IMG/VR virus record: IMGVR_UViG_3300034389_000010
Location: 33,935-97,934 of that record
Direction: 5' to 3' (one strand)
From: a virus
Length of the DNA stretch: 64,000 bases
Part shown: positions 2,005-47,107 of the stretch, in pieces
Layout of the letters: the number at the start of each line of letters is the position of its first letter
How positions within the stretch are numbered: position 1 is the first letter of the stretch
Program-made: the position numbers and the translations under genes
The notes under the pieces: model-generated
Told to the model about the DNA's origin: nothing
The model's input: only the letters and a program-made list of their open reading frames with translations
Databases searched by the model: none

Positions 2005-5000
2005 GCCTGTCATGACGGCGCTGCTGCGCGTCCAGCTATCGAATGACCTGGCGGCCGAGGTGGCCGCCTTGCCGGCAACCAGCCCCCTGGGGCGAGTGCA
2101 GGCCACGGGGCGCATCGTCGCCCTGCTGCAGCGCCTGGAAGGCCTGACCATCACCCCCGAGCAGGCCGCGTTCGACAAGGCCAAGGCGTTCTATCAGGGC
2201 ACCCTGCAGGGGCAGATCGTGCAATCCGTGGTTGGCCCGGTACGACTGACCGGCAAGGGCTGGCGCAAGGCGAAATTCGGCCTCAAGGAGGACCTGCTCA
2301 AGGCCCGCCTCATCGAGCACATCGTGGAGATCCTGCAGGGCGGTACCGCTGGCCAGCGCCGCGAGCCCTACAAAGAGCGCGATGACGGCATGGTCGCGTT
2401 CTACTTCATCCAGAAGGATGTCCAGATCGACCAGGAGCTGGTCACCGCCGGCGTCACCGTGGGCGAGGATGCCCAGGGCAATCTGTTCTACAACGTCTCG
2501 CATGCCGGGGCCAAGGGCTGGACCGCAAACGAAAACGAAAACGGCACCCTTGATTCCACATGGATAGAGCCACGCTTCGTCTTGGATGCCGTCAATGACA
2601 GCGTAGCAGAGGACGATCTCAATATCACTATCCTGGCAGTGCGTCCTGTCGGCGGCCGCCAGGCCTTCGCCACGGTGGTGCCGGACAAGGGCGGCGCCGT
2701 GCTGATCCTGGGCGATGCCGATGCGATCGCCATGCGGGTCCGCGAGCAGTTCGGCAAGCCGCAGATCGTCGAAGGTGGCGTGCGCCTGACCAAGGGCGAC
2801 GCGCGCCTGGCCGAGTTCATCCCGCGCGAGATCGAGACGCTGGCCAGCGGCGCGGTGCTTGAGCACTACGCCTCGGGCGGCGTCGCCGTGCGCGGGGACT
2901 TCCGGGGCGGCCTGGAGGGCATCGCCCAGGACCTGCCGCACCTGGAGTCGGCTTTCGTGTACAGCCACGGGCCGGAGGTGTTCGCCCAGGTGTTCGGCAA
3001 GGAGGCTGACCCAGCGGATGCTCAAGCCTATTTCGAGCAGCAGGACGAGATCGCCCAGCGCCACGCGGACAACGAAGCCCGCGAGACGGCGGAACGCATC
3101 GAGTACGCCCGGCGCACCGACGACTGGAGCAAGGTCACCGCTGAGGAGCGCGCCCAGCTCCAGGCCGAGCGGGATGCCGCCATGCGTGCCTATGCCGAGC
3201 GCGACCTGGCCAATTGGATGGCCACCATCGGCACCGGTACCTCGGATAACCCGCGCCTGCAAGCCTATCTGGACACCGTCGAGGATCTGTCGCCAGAAAA
3301 CCGCACCATGATCCAGGTCGGTTATATGGGCTGGATCCCTAAGCGCATTGCCGAGTACGAGCCCACCGCCGGCCGTATGCCCTACCTGCCGGGCTCGCCC
3401 ACATACATCGCCTGGCAGGCGGGCTTTACCGCCCTTTGCCGCGCCTGGGCTGATGCGCACCTGTCCGAACGGGTCAAATCTACCGCCTCCGCTGAGCAGG
3501 CGCCGCTGTACCAGGTGACCGAGCTGTATCACGGCACGGCCCTGCCCTTCGATACGTTCGCCGAGGGCCAGCGCCGTGGCGCCGGCTTCGATCACCAGGG
3601 CGCCGGCTGGTACCTGACCAACGATCGCCAGGGCCTGGCCCGCTACTTCGCCAGCATGGCCGCCGTCAAGCTGTCGGGTCGCCCAGGCTTCACCCCCGAG
3701 GAGCAGGAGCTGCTGGAAGAGGGCGTGATTCTGCGCGTCTCGATCGCGGGCACCAGGGTGCTGGATCTGACCCGAGTGGACGCCGATCCCGAGCTGGTGG
3801 CCATGGTGAGCGACATCGTCAACGGCAACGCCCTGCGCGAGCGTGTGCTGGCCATGGGGCTCGATGGCGTCGCCTTCGTCGAGCCCAACCCGCCCGAGGG
3901 CGTGGTAACGCTGCCTGACGCCGTCACTGTGGTCATGTACCACCCGGAAAAGGGCAAAGTCCTGGGCTACGAGGCCGCCGAAAGCGTGCCGGAGCTGCCT
4001 TTCCCCTCGGAGGATCCCCAGCCCGTGCCCCCTACCGGCCGCGCCAAGCCGGGCGGCGAAGTGGGCGTTAATGGCTTCTTCTACAAGGGCGGCACCTTCC
4101 TGCCGACCACCCAGCTGCCGCTACAGGGCAGCCAAGGCCGTACCGCGACCCGCGTCCGTACCTTGCTGATCGAACCCGGCGTGCGCGCTGAGGCGCCCGA
4201 TGGCTATGCGGCCATTTTCGGCAGCTACCTGGAGTTCATCCAAGTCGGCGCCGATGGCGTGGCCAGCCTCCTGGTGCGTCCAGACGAGGCGATCGCCGCC
4301 TATGTGAACGATGACGTGGCCGAAGGGCGTGCGTTCCTGCGCGCGGCCGTGGATGCCTACAACGGCGGCATGCGCTGGTACAAGGCGGGCGACATCGAGG
4401 TCACCGAGGAGCACCGGGAGGAGCCGGCCGCCCCTGAGTACGAGATCATCGAGCACGAGACCGGCCGGAAAAAGATCCTGCGCGGCATCGTCCGGACCGA
4501 CCTCACCTATGCCCAGGCCAAGGCGATCGATGAGTACACGTTCAAGAAGAACGGCGGCTACTTCATCCGCGAGAAGCACCTGGAGAGCATGGGTCTTGCT
4601 CCGGCCGGCGGTGGCGAGCCCGCACCGGAGCCGGCTCTGGACCCCGAGGCCGAGGCCCTGCGCCAGCAGCAGCGCGAGATCGAACGCCAGCAGCGCGAGG
4701 CCGATCGCCTGGCCAATGAGCAGGAGCGTGAGCGCCGCCGGGTGACCGAGCAGGTCGCGACCCTGCGCAAGGTCGCCGCCAGCAGCCTGGAAAAGGCCAC
4801 CGAGGAGCTGAATCGCGACCGCCAGACCAATACCGCCCGCCGCGCCGGCATGGCGGCCAGCATCCTGGAGCGCGCCGAGAAAGATCGCGCCCTGTCGGTG
4901 ACCCTGGGCAACCTCGCCGATGCCATCGAGCAGGGCAAGGCGACGCACCTGGCGGGCCTCACCAGCAAGGCCCAGCTGGACACCCTGCATAACGCCCTGG

Positions 5001-5965: not shown

Positions 5966-5968
5966 ATC

Positions 5969-13857: not shown

Positions 13858-14403
13858 ATGCGCTGCTCGGTGCTGCTGGCCAGTTACGTCGCCGTCCGCC
13901 CGCTCGGCATCATCCTTGAGGATGACCAGCTGGCGCGCAGCCTGAAACGGTCCATCCGGTTCTATTGCGGCTATGCCACGCTGACCCATGCGCCGAGCGC
14001 CTTCGAGATCCTGCTGCAGGACGCCGAGGCGGCGCGCATCGCGGCCGAGCGCCAGCAGATCGACCTGCTGGGTATCGGCGGCGTGCTCACGCCCTGGGAA
14101 CGCGCCGCGCTGCCGAAGGTGCCGCTGTACGCCCCGCGCGGGGTGGACGTGCATTCCCCGGTCGATGCCAGCAACGGCTTCATCGGCGACCAGGACTTCG
14201 ACCTGACGCCGAGCGAATACGCACTGATCTGGCCGCTGTTCGAGCTGTATGTGGAGTTGGAGAACGCCGAGGCCCTGGAAGCCTCGCGCGCCAGCGGCAT
14301 GGACGGCTGGGGCCGCAGCACCGACACCATCCGCGCCGAGATCGAGCAGACCGAGGAGCGGATGAGCAAGGCCGCCTTCGAGTTCGAGTGCATCACCCTA
14401 TGA
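13858..14403 (+). CDS. Putative head-tail connector / neck protein
   Basis: 181 aa helical protein in the structural operon. Confidence 0.45.
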   Translation: MRCSVLLASYVAVRPLGIILEDDQLARSLKRSIRFYCGYATLTHAPSAFEILLQDAEAARIAAERQQIDLLGIGGVLTPWERAALPKVPLYAPRGVDVHSPVDASNGFIGDQDFDLTPSEYALIWPLFELYVELENAEALEASRASGMDGWGRSTDTIRAEIEQTEERMSKAAFEFECITL

Positions 14404-15074
14404 GCGTGTTCGATCGCATCGCCAACCAGGTCGGACAGAACTACCTGTCCGCCCTGGGCCAGGCCTCCCCGCTGATCAAGTTCGGTACCGACCTGCTGAG
14501 CCAAAAGCTCACCAGCCGGGTCAAGCTCGGCAAGCGGGCGCTATTCGGCGGCCTGTCGGAGAGCAACTGGCGCGGGATGATCGAGGACTTCATTTCGATC
14601 GACCGCAGCAAGGCCAACCTCTTCCACTTCAACGCCACCAACCTGCAGACCGGCACCGCGCCGGATCTGAATATGTTCGTGATCGGCTTCCAGGCCTCGC
14701 CCATGACGGTGCGCGGCGAGTCGGTACCGATCGGCGCCAGCTTCTACGACAAGGTCGAGGGGATGGACGCCGTCCAGCTGCGCGTCACCACCATGGACGA
14801 CGCCGGCGGCTCGGTGAAGACCTGGTTCAAGAACATGCACCGGGCGATGGCCCCCGGCGACGGCACGGTCGGCATGCCGCTGTCCTACCTGGTCCGGATC
14901 ACCATCACCCACGCCTTCCCCAGCCAGAAGTCGGACGGCGCCGGCGGCGCCTTCGTCGATAGCTGGGTCATGCGCCCCGGCTCGATCGAGTACGAGGGCG
15001 ATCGCCGCAATGACGGCCTGCAGGAGCTGCAGCTGTCGTTCGTTCAATTCGACGGTTTTTCCAACCTGATCTAG
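14400..15074 (+). CDS. Tail tube-fold protein (P1 PmgG-like)
   Basis: ATGA overlap start at 14400; ends ELQLSFVQF, tube-like. Confidence 0.5.
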   Translation: MSVFDRIANQVGQNYLSALGQASPLIKFGTDLLSQKLTSRVKLGKRALFGGLSESNWRGMIEDFISIDRSKANLFHFNATNLQTGTAPDLNMFVIGFQASPMTVRGESVPIGASFYDKVEGMDAVQLRVTTMDDAGGSVKTWFKNMHRAMAPGDGTVGMPLSYLVRITITHAFPSQKSDGAGGAFVDSWVMRPGSIEYEGDRRNDGLQELQLSFVQFDGFSNLI

Positions 15075-15081
15075 GTGGTTC

Positions 15082-15867
15082 ATGCGCCATATCGCCCCGT
15101 ACCGCACGCCCCGCATCGGCGTGGATCTCAAAGAGCTGACCTTGGGCGCCGCCATCGTGCTGACCGCCCGGCCCTTTACCACCTACGAGGCCAACCAGGG
15201 CGCGTGCCTGGCGGCGATCGTGGAGCGCCACGAGGATCGGGATGGCCAGGTGACCGATCTGCGTCTGTGGACCGTCCAGGAGCGGCACGCGGTGATCTCG
15301 CACTACCTGGCGCACACCTTCGACAGCTTCGACTTCCCGGTCGGCGAGAATGCCCGCTTCTCGAACTACCTGCTGATGGAGCGGCCCATGGCCGAGCCGG
15401 TCGCGCTGGGGCCGATCGCCGATGACGAGTGGACCCTGCTGCCGCTGCTGGGCCTCTACGCCGAGTCGATCGAGCGCCTGATGGCCCAGCAGCGCATCCC
15501 CGCAAAGCGCCACGGCTGGGTGATCGCCTGCATGGCCGCGCAGATGCGTTCCACCGACGCCCGCGAGTCCGAGTTCCTGGCCAAGTGCAACCTGCCCAAT
15601 GCCGCGCACCAGGACCTGCCCGAGGCCCTGGTGGACGACTGGCTGGAGCGCCGCGTGCAGATGCTGCTCAACACCGCCGAAAGCGACTTCGCCGACCTGA
15701 TGGGCGCCTACCTTGCCGGCTTCGAGCAGCAACAGCACCTGGTGCGCATGGCGCATCACGACGATGGCCTGGTACTGGTCGGGGAGGCGCCGGGGCTGCC
15801 CCCGGCCCGATTTCCAGTTTCCGACCTGTTTGGACGCCAAACGCAACGACTTCTTGGTATCGCTTGA
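15082..15867 (+). CDS. Putative baseplate hub assembly chaperone
   Basis: 261 aa; WTVQER motif; tail operon context. Confidence 0.45.
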   Translation: MRHIAPYRTPRIGVDLKELTLGAAIVLTARPFTTYEANQGACLAAIVERHEDRDGQVTDLRLWTVQERHAVISHYLAHTFDSFDFPVGENARFSNYLLMERPMAEPVALGPIADDEWTLLPLLGLYAESIERLMAQQRIPAKRHGWVIACMAAQMRSTDARESEFLAKCNLPNAAHQDLPEALVDDWLERRVQMLLNTAESDFADLMGAYLAGFEQQQHLVRMAHHDDGLVLVGEAPGLPPARFPVSDLFGRQTQRLLGIA

Positions 15868-36080: not shown

Positions 36081-36801
36081 CCCCCGACCGCAAGCTGATG
36101 GCAGCACCAAGCCGGGCATCCTGGACGAGCTGTGGAACCGGTTTGACGGCCGCTGGATGGATGCCTGGTCGCGCAAGTTCCCGAACCCGGCCGCGATCGA
36201 GAACTGGAAGCTGACGCTGTCCGAGGATCTGGCCGCCGAGCGCATCACCGGCAAGGAGTTCGCGCGGGGCTGCGAGGCCCTTCGTACCTGCAAGTTTCCG
36301 CCCAATCCGGCCGAGTTCATCATGCTCTGCCGGCCGACGCTTGACCCCTATGTCGCCTACCAGGAGGCGATGACCGAAATGCCCAAGCGGCACTTCCCGG
36401 CGGTCAAGGAGGGGAAGCTGGTGAGCGAGGATCAGTGGTCAGAGCCCGCGATCTTTTGGGCCGCCGCGCGCATGTGGCACGACCTGCAGCACTGCTCCTG
36501 GAAGCAGATCCAGGCCCGCTGGGAGCGAGAGCTGGCCAAGGCTCGGAAAGAGCATCTGACCATGCCTCCGAAAGCGACGCATGCTATCGAGCACAAGCCC
36601 GAGCCCACGATCAAGCCGGACGAGCAGCGACGCATGATCGCCGACATGATCGGCCAGCTGAATGTCCGCAAGCCGCCCAAGCCAGTTCGCGAGGGTGGTC
36701 CGGAGCTGGATCGGGACCTTGAGGAGCGCAAGCGTCGCGCCGAGGCCGAGGTCCAGCTGGCGATGATGCAGCGCGCAAAGAGAAAAACCGAGGGCGCATA
36801 A
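36028..36801 (+). CDS. Lambda P-like helicase loader
   Basis: W...F....ENW..L..., FPPNPAEFI.LC, W..PAIFWAA; follows the O-like gene. Confidence 0.65.
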   Translation: MAQVLTITSMVTPSVWTDPRPQADGSTKPGILDELWNRFDGRWMDAWSRKFPNPAAIENWKLTLSEDLAAERITGKEFARGCEALRTCKFPPNPAEFIMLCRPTLDPYVAYQEAMTEMPKRHFPAVKEGKLVSEDQWSEPAIFWAAARMWHDLQHCSWKQIQARWERELAKARKEHLTMPPKATHAIEHKPEPTIKPDEQRRMIADMIGQLNVRKPPKPVREGGPELDRDLEERKRRAEAEVQLAMMQRAKRKTEGA

Positions 36802-37171: not shown

Positions 37172-37281
37172 GCCAGTACCTGTGCCCCGAGTTCCTGATG
37201 GTCGTGACCTTGGCCGCCGCGTACCTGTCGATCGCGGTCCTGGTGCTGATCGACAGTTTCCGCAAGGAGCCCCGGCCGTGA
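37168..37281 (+). CDS. 37-aa single-TM peptide
   Basis: ATGA/GTGA overlaps on both sides; MSQYLCPEFLMVVTLAAAYLSIAVLVLIDSFRKEPRP. Confidence 0.45.
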   Translation: MSQYLCPEFLMVVTLAAAYLSIAVLVLIDSFRKEPRP

Positions 37282-37580
37282 CCGAAGCTCAAACCATCCT
37301 GGGCGCCCTGATCCTGGGCGTCTTCCTGATCGCCGCTGGCCAGCTGATCGATCACCTGTACCAGCGCCGGCTGCGCACGCTCAGGGCGCGCGACATCGCC
37401 CGCGAGGTCGAGGCCGGTAAGCGTTGCCCGGAGTGTTTCGGAAAGTGCCTCATTCGGCTGCCGTCCATGAACGCCAAGCTATGTGCAGATTGCCACGCGG
37501 AGATCCCGTGGCACCTGTCCGAGGGCCAGGTCCAGACCCTCGCGCCCAGTCGCGCACATCGCAAGGTGAAGCCCCAGTGA
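37278..37580 (+). CDS. TM + Zn-ribbon protein
   Basis: N-terminal TM; CPEC...CADC. Confidence 0.55.
   Translation: MTEAQTILGALILGVFLIAAGQLIDHLYQRRLRTLRARDIAREVEAGKRCPECFGKCLIRLPSMNAKLCADCHAEIPWHLSEGQVQTLAPSRAHRKVKPQ
37440..37480 (+). promoter_or_regulatory. Intragenic copy of the late promoter, GGAAAG-N29-CAAGCT
   Basis: Same spacing; upstream of dut and the terminase-like gene. Confidence 0.5.
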
Positions 37581-38059
37581 GTGAGCCAACCCCCGTACTC
37601 CATTTCTATACCCGTCCTGTGCTGAGCTTCGTGCGCATGGGTGGTCACCAGCTGCCCCTGCCTCGCCAAGCCACTGCCGGCGCCGCTGGCTACGACCTGT
37701 CCGCCGTGGGCGAGCACGTCGTGCTGCCGGGTGAGCGCAAGATGATCCCCACCGGCTGGGGCCTCCGCGTGCGGACCGGCATGCACGGCCAAATCTGGCC
37801 GCGCTCTGGCCTGGCCAACAAGCACGGCATCGACACCCTGGCCGGCATGATCGACAGCGACTATCAGGGCGAGATCAAGGTGATCCTGCTCAACACCGGC
37901 GATCTACCTTTCCGCATCGAGCACGGAGACCGCATCGCCCAGCTGGTGATCTGCGGCCACCTGGTGGCAGAGCCCTGCGAGACCGAGGACCTGGGCGAGG
38001 TTGCGACCGAGCGCGGTACCGGCGGCTTCGGTTCCACCGGCATGGGGGTGTCGCACTGA
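37577..38059 (+). CDS. dut: Trimeric dUTPase
   Basis: AGYDL, PRSGLA, G.IDSDYQGE, GDRIAQL, RG.GGFGSTG. Confidence 0.95.
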   Translation: MSEPTPVLHFYTRPVLSFVRMGGHQLPLPRQATAGAAGYDLSAVGEHVVLPGERKMIPTGWGLRVRTGMHGQIWPRSGLANKHGIDTLAGMIDSDYQGEIKVILLNTGDLPFRIEHGDRIAQLVICGHLVAEPCETEDLGEVATERGTGGFGSTGMGVSH

Positions 38060-39096
38060 TGGGCATTCGCAATCTGTTCGCCAGCCTGCTGCGCTCCAAG
38101 GACTCCGACTACGTCTTCGGTCTGATCGATCGTGGCCACATCGGCGCCAGCCACGAGCGCACCCCGCTGGTCCGCGAGAATGCCGGCGACCTGATCCTGG
38201 TGGCCGTCGCCGGCGGCTGCTACCGGGCGCAGACTGTCCTGGTGCATGCCCGTATCGGTCGCAGCGCATCGGGCGATCCGCTGCACAACCTGGACGTGAT
38301 GCAGGTCGAGAGCCTGGGTGTGCCTGATCCGGCCGAGGTCGCCGAGCATATCGCCGACAGGCGCAATGCTCTGCCGGGCGCCCAGGTGCTGATCCACGTC
38401 GGCGGCCAGGGCATCACCGTCGCCCGCCTGCTGACGCATGTGGGCATCCCACATCGCCGGATCAACTGGGGCGATCAATCCTCTGACCCCACGTTGCGCA
38501 AGACCTACCGCAATGTGAAGGCCCAGGCCTACGAAAGCCTGGTCACCGCCTTCCACCGGCACGCCATCACCTTCCAGTGCGAGCCGCCGCTGTACCTGTA
38601 CCAGGATGCCGCGCGCATCGGCCGCCGCGTCCATGACGACCGTATCGAGTACGCATCGGCAAACCTGGTGGGCCAGTTCGAGGGTATTGATCTGCTCGAC
38701 TGCCTGGCGGCCGCCTACCTGGACGGCCTGACCTGGACTGTCGCCCCGGCCAAGGTGCCGCCGGTGGTGGCTGCCCTGCGCGCCGAAGCCCAGCGGGCCG
38801 CCCCGGCCAGCTCCTCGCGCTTCGACAGCTCGCCGGCGCCGGTGGACTCGATGGGACTGGGCAGCACGCTGCACCCGCTCAACCCGCTGTCGCCGTATAA
38901 CTCGCTCAACCAGCAGGCCGCCCTGGCGGATGAGCCTCGCCGCCATGAGCCCGAGCCGGTGCGCTGCATGCCGTCGTCGCACTCCTCCTCGGACTACGGC
39001 AGCAGCTACTCCAGCTACGACTCCGGGTCGAGCGGCTACAGCAGCTACAGCAGCGATTCGGGCAGCAGCTGCTCCGGCAGCTCGGGCTGCGACTGA
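38059..39096 (+). CDS. Stand-alone terminase large-subunit nuclease-like domain (degenerate) with Ser/Gly-rich tail
   Basis: VAVAGG..RA.TV, VLIHVGGQG, RRINWG, Y.N.KAQAY, D..DC.A.AYL resemble the PacB-type C-terminus; no Walker motifs. Confidence 0.6.
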   Translation: MGIRNLFASLLRSKDSDYVFGLIDRGHIGASHERTPLVRENAGDLILVAVAGGCYRAQTVLVHARIGRSASGDPLHNLDVMQVESLGVPDPAEVAEHIADRRNALPGAQVLIHVGGQGITVARLLTHVGIPHRRINWGDQSSDPTLRKTYRNVKAQAYESLVTAFHRHAITFQCEPPLYLYQDAARIGRRVHDDRIEYASANLVGQFEGIDLLDCLAAAYLDGLTWTVAPAKVPPVVAALRAEAQRAAPASSSRFDSSPAPVDSMGLGSTLHPLNPLSPYNSLNQQAALADEPRRHEPEPVRCMPSSHSSSDYGSSYSSYDSGSSGYSSYSSDSGSSCSGSSGCD

Positions 39097-39560
39097 TGGC
39101 CGGCTTGCGCATGACCGAGGCCGAGCTGCTGGCGCGCCAGCAGAAACAGGCCGACCAGGTCGCCCAGGTCAAAGCCAAGGTGCTCGCCGAGGTGCCTGCC
39201 GCGAAGCTCAAGGACTCGCAGCAGCGCCTGCGCGCCCTGGGCCACCTCAAGCCCGGCGAAATGAACAAGACCGAGCAGCGCTACCACGACCACCTGCAGC
39301 TGCAGAAGCAGGCGGGGCTGGTGCTCTGGTTCGAGTTCGAGAGCATCAAGCTCAAGCTCTGCGACAACACCCACTTCACCCCGGACTTCGCCCTGATGGG
39401 CGCCGATGGGGTGCTGGAGCTGCACGACGTGAAGGGCTCGCGCGCCATCATCAAGGACGACGCCCATCTCAAGATGAAATGGGCGGCCGATCGCTATCCC
39501 TTCCGGATCTGCTACGTCTTCCCGGTGAAGGGCGGCGGCTGGGAGATCGAGGAGGTATGA
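39096..39560 (+). CDS. DUF1064-like PD-(D/E)XK endonuclease
   Basis: MNKTE..Y, FTPDF, HDVKG. Confidence 0.75.
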   Translation: MAGLRMTEAELLARQQKQADQVAQVKAKVLAEVPAAKLKDSQQRLRALGHLKPGEMNKTEQRYHDHLQLQKQAGLVLWFEFESIKLKLCDNTHFTPDFALMGADGVLELHDVKGSRAIIKDDAHLKMKWAADRYPFRICYVFPVKGGGWEIEEV

Positions 39561-39796
39561 AGACCCCGATCAAGCGACCCCGCGCGCCCCAGGGCACCTA
39601 CATCGTCGGGCGCAGCTTTCACCGCATGACCCTGGTCGAGCAGCGCGGCCCGCAACCGAGCGGCCTGTGGCTGGCGCGCTGCGTCTGCGGTACCGAGAAG
39701 GTGGTGGCGGCCAATGACTGCCGGCGCGGCCGGGTCAAGTCCTGCGGCTGCCTGATGGTCGAACTGCTCAAGGCCCGCGCTAAGGTCCCCGCATGA
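39557..39796 (+). CDS. Small Cys-containing protein (HNH/AP2-associated N-domain-like)
   Basis: W..RC.CG....V....R.G..KSCGC. Confidence 0.55.
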   Translation: MKTPIKRPRAPQGTYIVGRSFHRMTLVEQRGPQPSGLWLARCVCGTEKVVAANDCRRGRVKSCGCLMVELLKARAKVPA

Positions 39797-45497: not shown

Positions 45498-46457
45498 ATG
45501 GCTCCGCCCAAGACCACGGCCAGTAAGCCAGCCACCAAGCGCAAGGCCCCGGCCAAGAAGCCCGCCACCCCCAAGGCCAAGACGGCCAGTAAGCCCAAGG
45601 CCGCAAAGCCTGATCCGGTACCTGCCACTCCCCTCACCCCCGAGGAGGAGCTACTGGCGTCCATGGATCCTCGTCACGTCCGGTTCGTGGAGAGCTACCT
45701 GGGTTCGTACAACCAGACCAGCGCCTACCGTGCAGCCTTCGACACCAAGGGGGACATGAGCGACAACAGCTGCGCCGCCAACGCCTCACGCCTGCTAAGA
45801 ACTGATAAGGTCGCCCGGCTCATGGCCCTGCGCGTCCGTCAGGCATTCGACGATATGGACGGGGACATCAAGACCCGCGCCCTTGAGCGTCTGATGGGCA
45901 TGGCCTTCGGCGATCCGAACGAGCTGACCGAGATCCGCCGGGAGTGCTGCCGCTTCTGCTACGGCATCGATAACGAATACCAGTACAAGCCCAGCGAGTG
46001 GCGCGAGAAGCTGGACGAGTACGCTCGCGACCTGGCCGAGGCGACCAAGAACGAAAGCAAGCCGCCGGCAGAGCCCAAGCCGGCAGGCGGTACCGGCTTT
46101 GATCCGCGCCTGGAGCCCAATGCCGAATGCCCCGAGTGCTTTGGTGAAGGCGTAGAGCGCCAAGTGCTCAAGGACACCCGTCACCTGTCTCCTGCCGGCC
46201 GCGCCCTGTACGCCGGGTCGAAGTGGACCAAGGACGGCCTGCAGATCCTGCAGCACGACCAGCTCAAGGCCTTCGATATGCTGACCAGGGTCATCAAGAT
46301 GCTGGACGACCGCCCCGAGGCGATCATCAACGTCGTCGCCGCCGAGGTCCTGGACGAGATTTACACCAAGGCCATGCAGAACGCGGCAGAAGGCAAGGAA
46401 CGGCTGGGCGCAAGGCTCGGCGTGCCCCCGCCGGTGCGGCCAGGGCTCACGGGCTGA
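45498..46457 (+). CDS. Terminase small subunit with Zn-finger insertion
   Basis: RFVESYL..YNQT.AYRAA...NASRLL...KV; CC.FC.G...CPEC.GEG; HDQ.KA. Confidence 0.75.
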   Translation: MAPPKTTASKPATKRKAPAKKPATPKAKTASKPKAAKPDPVPATPLTPEEELLASMDPRHVRFVESYLGSYNQTSAYRAAFDTKGDMSDNSCAANASRLLRTDKVARLMALRVRQAFDDMDGDIKTRALERLMGMAFGDPNELTEIRRECCRFCYGIDNEYQYKPSEWREKLDEYARDLAEATKNESKPPAEPKPAGGTGFDPRLEPNAECPECFGEGVERQVLKDTRHLSPAGRALYAGSKWTKDGLQILQHDQLKAFDMLTRVIKMLDDRPEAIINVVAAEVLDEIYTKAMQNAAEGKERLGARLGVPPPVRPGLTG

Positions 46458-46732
46458 CCTGTAGGCGCTGTGATCCCCTATTACCCCTATGGGTGGTAGC
46501 GGGTCCGGGTAGATCGTGCGCTATACGCGCTCCTTGGCGATCTGCCCTTTCAATCTTTCCTCTCGCCCTGGGCGTGCAGCTCATCGCTCAAGGTGCCCGC
46601 TTGGCTGCTATCACCATCGACTGATACCAAATACGGCTATCAAAAGTGTAGACTTAGCACTTTCCTAATGTGAAAATAGTTCAATACAGACTGCGGTTCT
46701 GTAGCGAATATTAGGTGAGTGAGGTGTGCCAG

Positions 46733-47107
46733 ATGTCCGTCCCCGATCCTGGGCGAGTGGCTGCGCTCCTGCAGCGCTACCGCTACCGCTATTCCACCGA
46801 GGCGCAGCTGCAAGAGCGCCTGTCCGCCGTGCTGGCCAGCCAGGGCATCGCCCACCAGCGTGAATACCGCTATGACGCCGACAACCGCTTCGACTTCCTG
46901 CTGGCCGATGGGCTGGTGATCGAGGTGAAGATCAAGGGCACGGCTGCTGATGCGCTGCGCCAGGTGGACCGGTACCAACGCCTGCCGCTGGTCACGGGCG
47001 TCATCCTCGCCGGCACGCCCCGCTGGGCCGCCGATTCCCTGCCCGATCGCCCTGAGTGGGGCGGCAAGGGCTTCCGCATGATCAAACTGGAGCGCCAGGC
47101 GCTATGA
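46733..47107 (+). CDS. PD-(D/E)XK-like small endonuclease
   Basis: E..LQ, REY, RFDFL, IEVK. Confidence 0.65.
   Translation: MSVPDPGRVAALLQRYRYRYSTEAQLQERLSAVLASQGIAHQREYRYDADNRFDFLLADGLVIEVKIKGTAADALRQVDRYQRLPLVTGVILAGTPRWAADSLPDRPEWGGKGFRMIKLERQAL

Follow-up and report, generated by a model that had tools for sequence, protein, structure and literature searches.

A diverged terminase nuclease domain with a substituted catalytic centre, inserted in a serine-rich accessory protein of a Pseudomonas phage-plasmid

Why should a phage-plasmid carry a second copy of the nuclease half of its own packaging enzyme, in which the residues used for cutting are replaced? This question is raised by one gene in a stretch of viral DNA of 64,000 nucleotides (hereafter the window), which represents bases 33935-97934 of the IMG/VR record IMGVR_UViG_3300034389_000010, a record of 97,934 bp rated complete by CheckV. 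An earlier note on the window, made from the letters alone, had read the gene as an apparently dead nuclease domain of a large terminase subunit (TerL), and proposed that it serves as a decoy or as a regulator of packaging. We found that its product (the target) is a derived pseudo-enzyme and not a TerL: it is homologous to TerL, but it has neither the catalytic centre nor the architecture of that enzyme. The gene, the domain in question and the full-length TerL of the same element are as follows.

38059..39096, plus strand: target gene, 345 amino acids (aa), a protein of three parts; supported by the GC content at third codon positions (GC3) and by 7 intact homologues
38101..38754, plus strand: inactivated TerL nuclease (RNase H-like) domain, aa ~15-232; found by BLASTP, AF2, Foldseek, VIA and ESM Atlas
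G000:C1:4291-5826, outside the window: TerL, 511 aa; phrog_2, E 1.9e-25

The open reading frame (ORF) 38059-39096 is a real gene, and its GC3 of 0.87 is typical of real genes here. Two other frames across the same region, an antisense ORF at 37864-38982 (GC3 0.74) and an overlapping plus-strand frame at 38930-39796 (GC3 0.51), were rejected as high-GC artefacts without homologues. The element itself is a P1-like Pseudomonas phage-plasmid, because the record has genes for a ParB-like partition protein, a portal protein, the tail and a PacB-type TerL, and because, among named relatives of the whole element, the 114-kb plasmid pPRS08-11306 of Pseudomonas psychrotolerans (CP018759.1) is the closest. 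Judged by its sequence, the resident TerL is of the P1 PacB type: it shares 33.5% identity with P1 pacB over 94% of the length (E 4e-71) and 39% identity with the TerL of Xanthomonas phage Rb1.

The relation of the target to this enzyme is significant at the sequence level. BLASTP aligned aa 40-245 of the target with aa 287-499 of the resident TerL at 28% identity (E 5e-18), and when the whole genome was searched with the target protein, the second place matched was the C-terminal part of the same TerL. The pairing of a target homologue with a TerL was also found in plasmid CP018759 (E 5e-16). The homology begins at about residue 15, where SDYVFGLIDRG of the target matches the TerL consensus DKYLLGR..IER. 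All motifs quoted in the earlier note lie where it had put them (VAVAGG at aa 48-53, VLIHVGGQG at 110-118, RRINWG at 133-138, YRNVKAQAY at 150-158 and IDLLDCLAAAYL at 210-221), and the Ser/Gly/Tyr tail is also present, with 22 Ser, 5 Tyr and 6 Gly in the final 45 residues. No P-loop or ATPase region was found in the 345 aa, and the packaging ATPase with Walker A/B motifs, which a whole terminase has in the same polypeptide, is missing.

The family is small. An exhaustive phmmer search of 1.8 billion representatives gave, besides the family, only the C-termini of TerL-like proteins of 520-860 aa and small proteins matching the tail, and only seven full-length homologues were found among 5.8 billion clustered proteins. 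There was no match in Pfam and NCBIfam with the whole target protein, in tblastn against 50,697 phage records, or in PDB sequence searches with the target family and with TerL, and pattern scans of viral contigs and genome contigs gave no further family members.

A protein without the ATPase half could be the C-terminal half of a split functional TerL. However, the 511-aa resident TerL is complete, with the ATPase motifs GHGTGKT and LLWLGDE and an intact nuclease domain of its own, and no ATPase-only terminase gene was found in the genome of the element. We consider a split enzyme as good as refuted.

AlphaFold with the seven family members alone gave an unusable model (predicted local distance difference test, pLDDT, of 40), and the model became usable once TerL homologues were added. 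With alignment A2, which contains the seven family members and 60 TerLs, the AF2 model reached pLDDT >90 over aa 20-230. The top 14 Foldseek matches of this model, and the best VIA matches too, were all terminase nuclease domains, as the earlier note would lead one to expect. The nearest solved structures are the TerL nuclease of Pseudomonas phage E217 (8dkr; VIA-align Z 19.8, root mean square deviation 2.4 Å over 189 residues) and Sf6 gp2 (5c12, 4idh; Z 19.1). The single-sequence model of ESM Atlas, made without the A2 alignment, has the same fold, with TM 0.7-0.8 to terminases. RuvC resolvases belong to the same RNase H-like clade and have a similar core, but the match to them is far weaker (Z ~8, against ~20 for terminases), and of the features of a RuvC-like resolvase the target shows neither the four catalytic acids nor a best match to RuvC. 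By sequence and by predicted structure, the resident PacB-type TerL has a diverged copy of its nuclease domain in aa ~15-232 of the target, where the terminase-type RNase H-like fold and the terminase-specific beta-hairpin are present.

Could this copy still cut DNA? The positions that decide this, together with a patch special to the family, are listed here with their columns in A2 and the corresponding residues of the resident TerL.

38203..38205, plus strand: codon 49 in beta-1; Ala or Val in the 7 members, Asp in 60/60 TerLs (column 366, D296)
38227..38229, plus strand: codon 57; Ala or Ser in the 7 members, Asp in 60/60 TerLs (column 374, D304 of the YRD motif)
38395..38397, plus strand: codon 113 at the end of beta-4; His, with Asn in 3 members, Asp in 60/60 TerLs (column 441, D363)
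38659..38661, plus strand: codon 201; Ala, Gly or Asn in the 7 members, Lys in 60/60 TerLs (column 538, K453)
38689..38700, plus strand: acidic pair D211 and D214, kept in the family and in all TerLs (columns 552 and 555, D465 and D468)
38566..38631, plus strand: family-specific patch aa 170-191 (ITFQCEPPLYLYQDAARIGRRV), a strand-helix-hairpin beside the former active site

Four residues that are invariant in TerLs (three Asp and one Lys) are substituted in all seven members, including two of the three metal ligands, and among the six columns only D211 and D214 are kept. The earlier note, which had compared the motifs with those of PacB-type domains and read the first acidic positions as Ala, Ala and His, was right on this point. 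In the model A49 ends beta-1, H113 ends beta-4, and D211 and D214 open the C-terminal helix; metal ligands canonically occupy these places. Both Mg ions of Sf6 gp2 are bound by the triad D244/D296/D444, with contributions from N441 and K428 (PMC4678813). From strand position, and not from residue-level superposition, we infer that codon 49 corresponds to Sf6 D244 and codon 113 to Sf6 D296. Codon 201 probably occupies the position of K428, and the spacing of D211 and D214 matches that of N441 and D444. The family thus has neither the acidic metal-binding triad equivalent to Sf6 D244/D296/D444 nor the conserved Lys. Because the bridging Asp of beta-1 is lost, canonical two-metal cleavage by the target is, as far as sequence can tell, very unlikely.

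A nuclease that is still active through a rebuilt active site (D211, D214, H/N113, E208 and other conserved acids) would agree with the invariance of D211, D214, E208, D193, D79 and D222 in the family, and active sites of TerL are known to drift (PMC4678813). But every member has Ala or Val in place of the beta-1 Asp, the residue that bridges the two metals in Sf6 as well as in RNase H-like enzymes; moreover, position 113 is unfixed between His and Asn, and the conserved Lys is lost, so we regard a rebuilt nuclease as highly improbable. Some residues around the old active site, namely R56, T59, N152, Q156, R186, D211 and D214, are conserved in both the family and the TerLs. In the patch at aa 170-191, 20 of the 22 positions are invariant in the seven members, while TerLs are variable or different there.

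The domain is not the whole protein. It lies between two other parts, which were recognized by comparison with short relatives.

38059..38100, plus strand: N-terminal motif aa 1-14 (MG[IL]xNLF..LL..K type), common to the insert-free slot proteins (alignment A4)
38755..39093, plus strand: helix, disordered linker and Ser/Tyr/Asp/Gly tail ending in Asp; PLHPLNPL and EPVRCEP with the invariant Cys303

The tail module also occurs as separate, disordered proteins of 128-178 aa, which have a short MxxLF-type motif at the N-terminus. In two complete viral contigs of ~90 kb with terminal repeats (L008/G001 and L009/G002), the slot between the dUTPase gene (dut) and the DUF1064 gene, where the target gene lies, holds a protein of 146-178 aa without nuclease domain (L008:6001-6441; L009:5450-5986). 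Only one TerL is present in each of these genomes, and a second nuclease-like place was found in neither. In a third complete relative (G003) neither the insert-bearing nor the insert-free form was seen. The short proteins (the slot proteins, P0008, P0009, P0013 and P0015) match only aa ~1-8 and 226-345 of the target in A4, and they have in common with it PLHPLNPL, EPVRCEP with the invariant Cys, SYDSGS and a Ser-rich end in D or DW. PHROG matches to the tail are phrog_13684 / phrog_13005-like, and pattern scans for the tail-only proteins P0015 and P0013 gave no loci.

The target thus has everything that marks the serine-rich slot family: the N-terminal motif, PLHPLNPL, EPVRCEP, the tail and the position between dut and DUF1064. 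Because the short relatives match the flanks only and stand in the same slot, the domain is read from the alignments as an in-frame insert, and the architecture is N-terminal motif, TerL nuclease copy and serine-rich tail. The insert was either gained, or later lost in some lineages. The word "stand-alone" in the earlier note therefore needs correction: the gene is separate and without the ATPase half, but the domain is flanked by the N-terminal motif and the tail of a separate small protein family. In the ~90-kb Pseudomonas phage-plasmids the slot gene is always found between dut and DUF1064, and its tail could perhaps be a substrate for modification or phosphorylation.

Is the insert maintained, or is it a relic? 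The seven family members are intact, without frameshifts or stops, down to 44% identity. In comparison with the plasmid homologue, the ratio of nonsynonymous to synonymous substitution rates (dN/dS) was 0.46 when the whole gene was taken; the domain gave 0.55 (bootstrap 0.38-0.79) and the tail 0.27, and the value for the domain was below 1 in 500/500 resamples; these ratios come from one genome pair, and P0002-P0004, P0006 and P0007 are known as proteins only. A pseudogene or relic is ruled out by the intact members to 44% identity and by the resamples, and the decay that would have spoken against the earlier note did not appear. By these substitution patterns the target is under purifying selection and not decaying.

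It evolves fast at the same time. The dN of the target was 0.36, against 0.12 for the nuclease domain of TerL and 0.05-0.19 for neighbouring genes, which makes it the fastest among the neighbours compared. This dN, roughly threefold the value for the TerL nuclease domain, the dN/dS of 0.55 and the insert-free versions in complete relatives would fit a functionless passenger, that is, a TerL fragment captured by the accessory gene and tolerated as the flanking parts are what selection keeps. However, the domain alone stays below 1 in every resample, its frame is open in all seven members, it contains the patch with 20 invariant positions, and its fold is predicted with high confidence; a mere passenger is quite unlikely in our judgement.

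The closest TerL relatives of the copy are PacB-like, which places its origin in the P1 PacB-type lineage. The members form one clade with a very long stem branch, which makes their placement within the TerL tree uncertain. The family has 28.1% identity to the resident TerL clade and 24-25% to others, and the tree that holds the family with the resident clade was the best found, 10.8 log-likelihood units above the free-search tree (p-AU 0.67). The nuclease copy probably arose by duplication of the resident TerL within the phage-plasmid lineage; the tree is consistent with this grouping and permits it without proving it.

The surroundings of the gene bear on what the protein may do. The neighbours and the nearest signals are the following.

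37182-37580, plus strand: Zn-ribbon ORF, upstream of the dUTPase gene
37577..38059, plus strand: dUTPase (dut), with a probable GTG start at 37577 that overlaps the stop of the Zn-ribbon ORF
39096..39560, plus strand: DUF1064 / Holliday-junction-resolvase-like gene, directly 3' of the slot in 4/4 genomes compared
37439..37480, plus strand: promoter-like motif copy CGGAAAG-N29-NANNNT, upstream of the dut-target gene string
45498..46457, plus strand: TerS-like gene (Terminase_2, phrog_51), 6.4 kb downstream of the target gene

The gene order is helicase loader, Ref nuclease, Zn-ribbon ORF, dUTPase, the slot, DUF1064 resolvase, orf84, NinB and a repressor-like gene, and around the slot it is kept in the window, in the plasmid and in the two complete ~90-kb contigs. 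This is in line with the earlier note, which had placed the gene among replication and nin-like genes, downstream of a late-promoter copy and 6 kb from the small terminase subunit (TerS). The start of the target overlaps the stop of dUTPase (TGATG), and its stop overlaps the start of DUF1064. In this way the four genes of 37182-39560 (Zn-ribbon ORF, dUTPase, target, DUF1064) are each joined to the next by a stop codon that overlaps a start codon, and these overlaps suggest that the four are translationally coupled.

The motif CGGAAAG-N29-NANNNT has 9 copies on the plus strand of the window against 0.72 expected, at 5968, 13310, 16101, 18610, 36544, 37439, 39891, 45259 and 63158. Most of them precede virion, lysis or TerS genes; copies are found directly upstream of the holin gene, at the start of the tail-tube ORF, before the probable capsid gene and before TerS. 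The copies at 36544 and 39891 are intragenic and look weaker. A late timing of this promoter-like motif is plausible from its distribution, and the target may be co-expressed with late genes.

This neighbourhood would suit a non-catalytic adaptor of the recombination module, binding DNA or junctions together with DUF1064, NinB and Ref, and perhaps linking branch resolution to packaging. In such an adaptor the RuvC-like fold would recognise DNA branches or ends. The overlaps with dut and DUF1064, and the place of the slot directly upstream of DUF1064 in four genomes, favour such an adaptor, and so do the residues R56, T59, N152, Q156, R186, D211 and D214 kept near the old active site. There is also a basic RIGRR stretch in the terminase-specific hairpin, and this hairpin cradles DNA in a RuvC-like binding model (PMC5389665). 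But the nuclease domain has a pI of 6.3 and is not basic, nuclease domains of TerL, when isolated, bind DNA poorly and are not its main binders (PMC5389665), and relatives keep the operon without the insert. The non-basic domain argues against simple DNA binding and favours a binding role other than gripping DNA. We hold the adaptor as conceivable, though rather doubtful.

What, then, might the protein do? Because canonical two-metal cutting is lost, it would have to work through binding, in imitation of the nuclease domain of TerL. In TerL this domain faces the portal, the cleavage site and the control mediated by TerS (PMC5389665). The target would take the places that the real nuclease domain has during packaging, on the TerL ring, on the portal or on the DNA at the cut site, and such occupation would delay or poison terminase cutting and packaging, either of the element itself or of a rival phage related to it. 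The original activity of the accessory protein would reside in the serine-rich tail. We infer this function, a non-catalytic TerL look-alike that interferes with packaging or tunes it, only tentatively, and it is the reading that we favour. The fast evolution of the gene and its presence or absence among close relatives resemble those of conflict genes.

Several points weigh against an effect on packaging. The gene lies in the replication/recombination module, not beside the TerL, TerS or portal gene. Because relatives lack the insert and manage without it, the insert is dispensable for packaging. The late timing of the promoter motif is assumed, and the dN/dS of 0.55 is relaxed, which also fits a weakly useful passenger. 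Finally, the alignment behind the AF2 fold contained TerL sequences, which may have biased the model; the ESM Atlas model agrees with it on the fold.

The same features could also belong to an immune decoy or shield, which was the other function put forward in the earlier note. The dead domain would mimic TerL to STAND sensors of the Avs1-3 type and be bound without activating them, so that the accessory protein would be an anti-defence factor. The kept TerL nuclease fold with a lost active site, and the rapid evolution and presence/absence pattern typical of conflict genes, are what a decoy would show; the nuclease domain of terminase, when natively folded, is a ligand of SeAvs3 (PMC13601566), and the Avs3-bound terminase chain 8dgc_E aligns to our model with Z 10.9. 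On the other hand, the main or sole trigger of Avs2 (EcAvs2) and Upx is the ATPase domain, which the target does not have, the nuclease domain alone (of some terminases) can activate KpAvs2, so that an extra copy is a possible liability, and SeAvs3 reads active-site residues that are replaced in the target (PMC13601566). Published data on terminase sensing thus weaken the simple decoy (PMC13601566, PMC11564622), and we consider it unlikely. A broader form, in which the protein is a molecular mimic in conflict that either blinds terminase-fold host sensors or poisons the packaging motor of a rival, by means of the graft into a fast-evolving disordered protein, can be entertained as a possibility, though it would be somewhat surprising.

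Compared with the large terminase, the target shares the fold with its hairpin, the pair D211/D214 and several structural residues. It differs in having no ATPase and four replaced residues, in having its own patch at aa 170-191, in being embedded in another protein, and in its place in the replication/recombination module.

Short C-terminal terminase products beside the full-length terminase are known from T4 gp17, as polypeptides from internal starts, and from herpesviruses, as UL15.5. They are nested in the terminase gene and have the same, catalytically intact sequence, and their roles are unclear. The target resembles them as a nuclease-domain protein beside a full terminase, but it comes from a separate, diverged and inactivated gene. 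We also noticed a case with the other half of the enzyme. In a P1 record (MH422554.1, 16006-17100; L041), a 364-aa gene with the annotation "terminase large subunit" lies between ssb and hxr. The similarity of its product to TerL is confined to the ATPase half (aa 8-262, 29% identity, E 4e-27), which makes it an ATPase-only TerL paralogue. Like the target gene, it is a separate gene with one terminase half beside the full enzyme; it differs in belonging to another phage lineage and in carrying the ATPase half, and it is not reported as an insert in a serine-rich protein. Our literature search for inactive terminase nuclease paralogues found no description, which is not proof of absence. The distinctive point here is a dead TerL nuclease domain grafted into a serine-rich accessory protein.

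Few proteins of tailed phages are as conserved as the large terminase, which is also the target of several bacterial immune sensors. A dead but conserved copy of its nuclease would clearly exemplify how a hallmark domain of a viral enzyme is re-used as a pseudo-enzyme, and here the copy is optional among close relatives. Should the protein turn out to regulate or sabotage packaging, or to hide the terminase from immune recognition, it would represent a novel kind of participant in conflicts between phages or between phage and host. A culturable system exists in P. psychrotolerans PRS08-11306 with plasmid pPRS08-11306, where BJP27_24330 is the homologue of the target gene.

Some further observations concern the element and its terminase genes. 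The TerS-like gene at 45498-46457 is the sole recognisable one, and on a circular record its distance from TerL would be ~22 kb. The TerS and TerL genes of P1 and of Xanthomonas phage Rb1, unlike those of this element, are adjacent. Directly upstream of the TerL of the element there is a 170-aa gene (G000 3573-4085, phrog_1934), whose annotation gives no function. After TerS, a 130-aa ORF at 46715-47107 has a sub-threshold Pfam match to Pertussis_S1, an ADP-ribosyltransferase family (E 0.006; 16.9 bits against a cut-off of 21.3), which is too weak for assignment.

Hint/LAGLIDADG inteins interrupt many TerLs of the phage-plasmid group (P0017, P0019, P0022, P0027, P0050, P0053 and others, as well as the TerLs of G002 and G003). 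The intein-bearing TerLs have 650-880 aa against ~511, and the TerL of the window element is intein-free. Plasmid record CP018759.1 contains two equal-scoring TerL copies, at 13969-15513 and 108211-109755, which are 94,242 bp apart; the record probably has ~20 kb of assembly redundancy, and the true unit would then be ~94 kb. Near-identical copies of the element occur in leaf and plant metagenomes: across the region, identical copies are present in two further leaf/plant metagenomes, and there are also relatives at ~90%.

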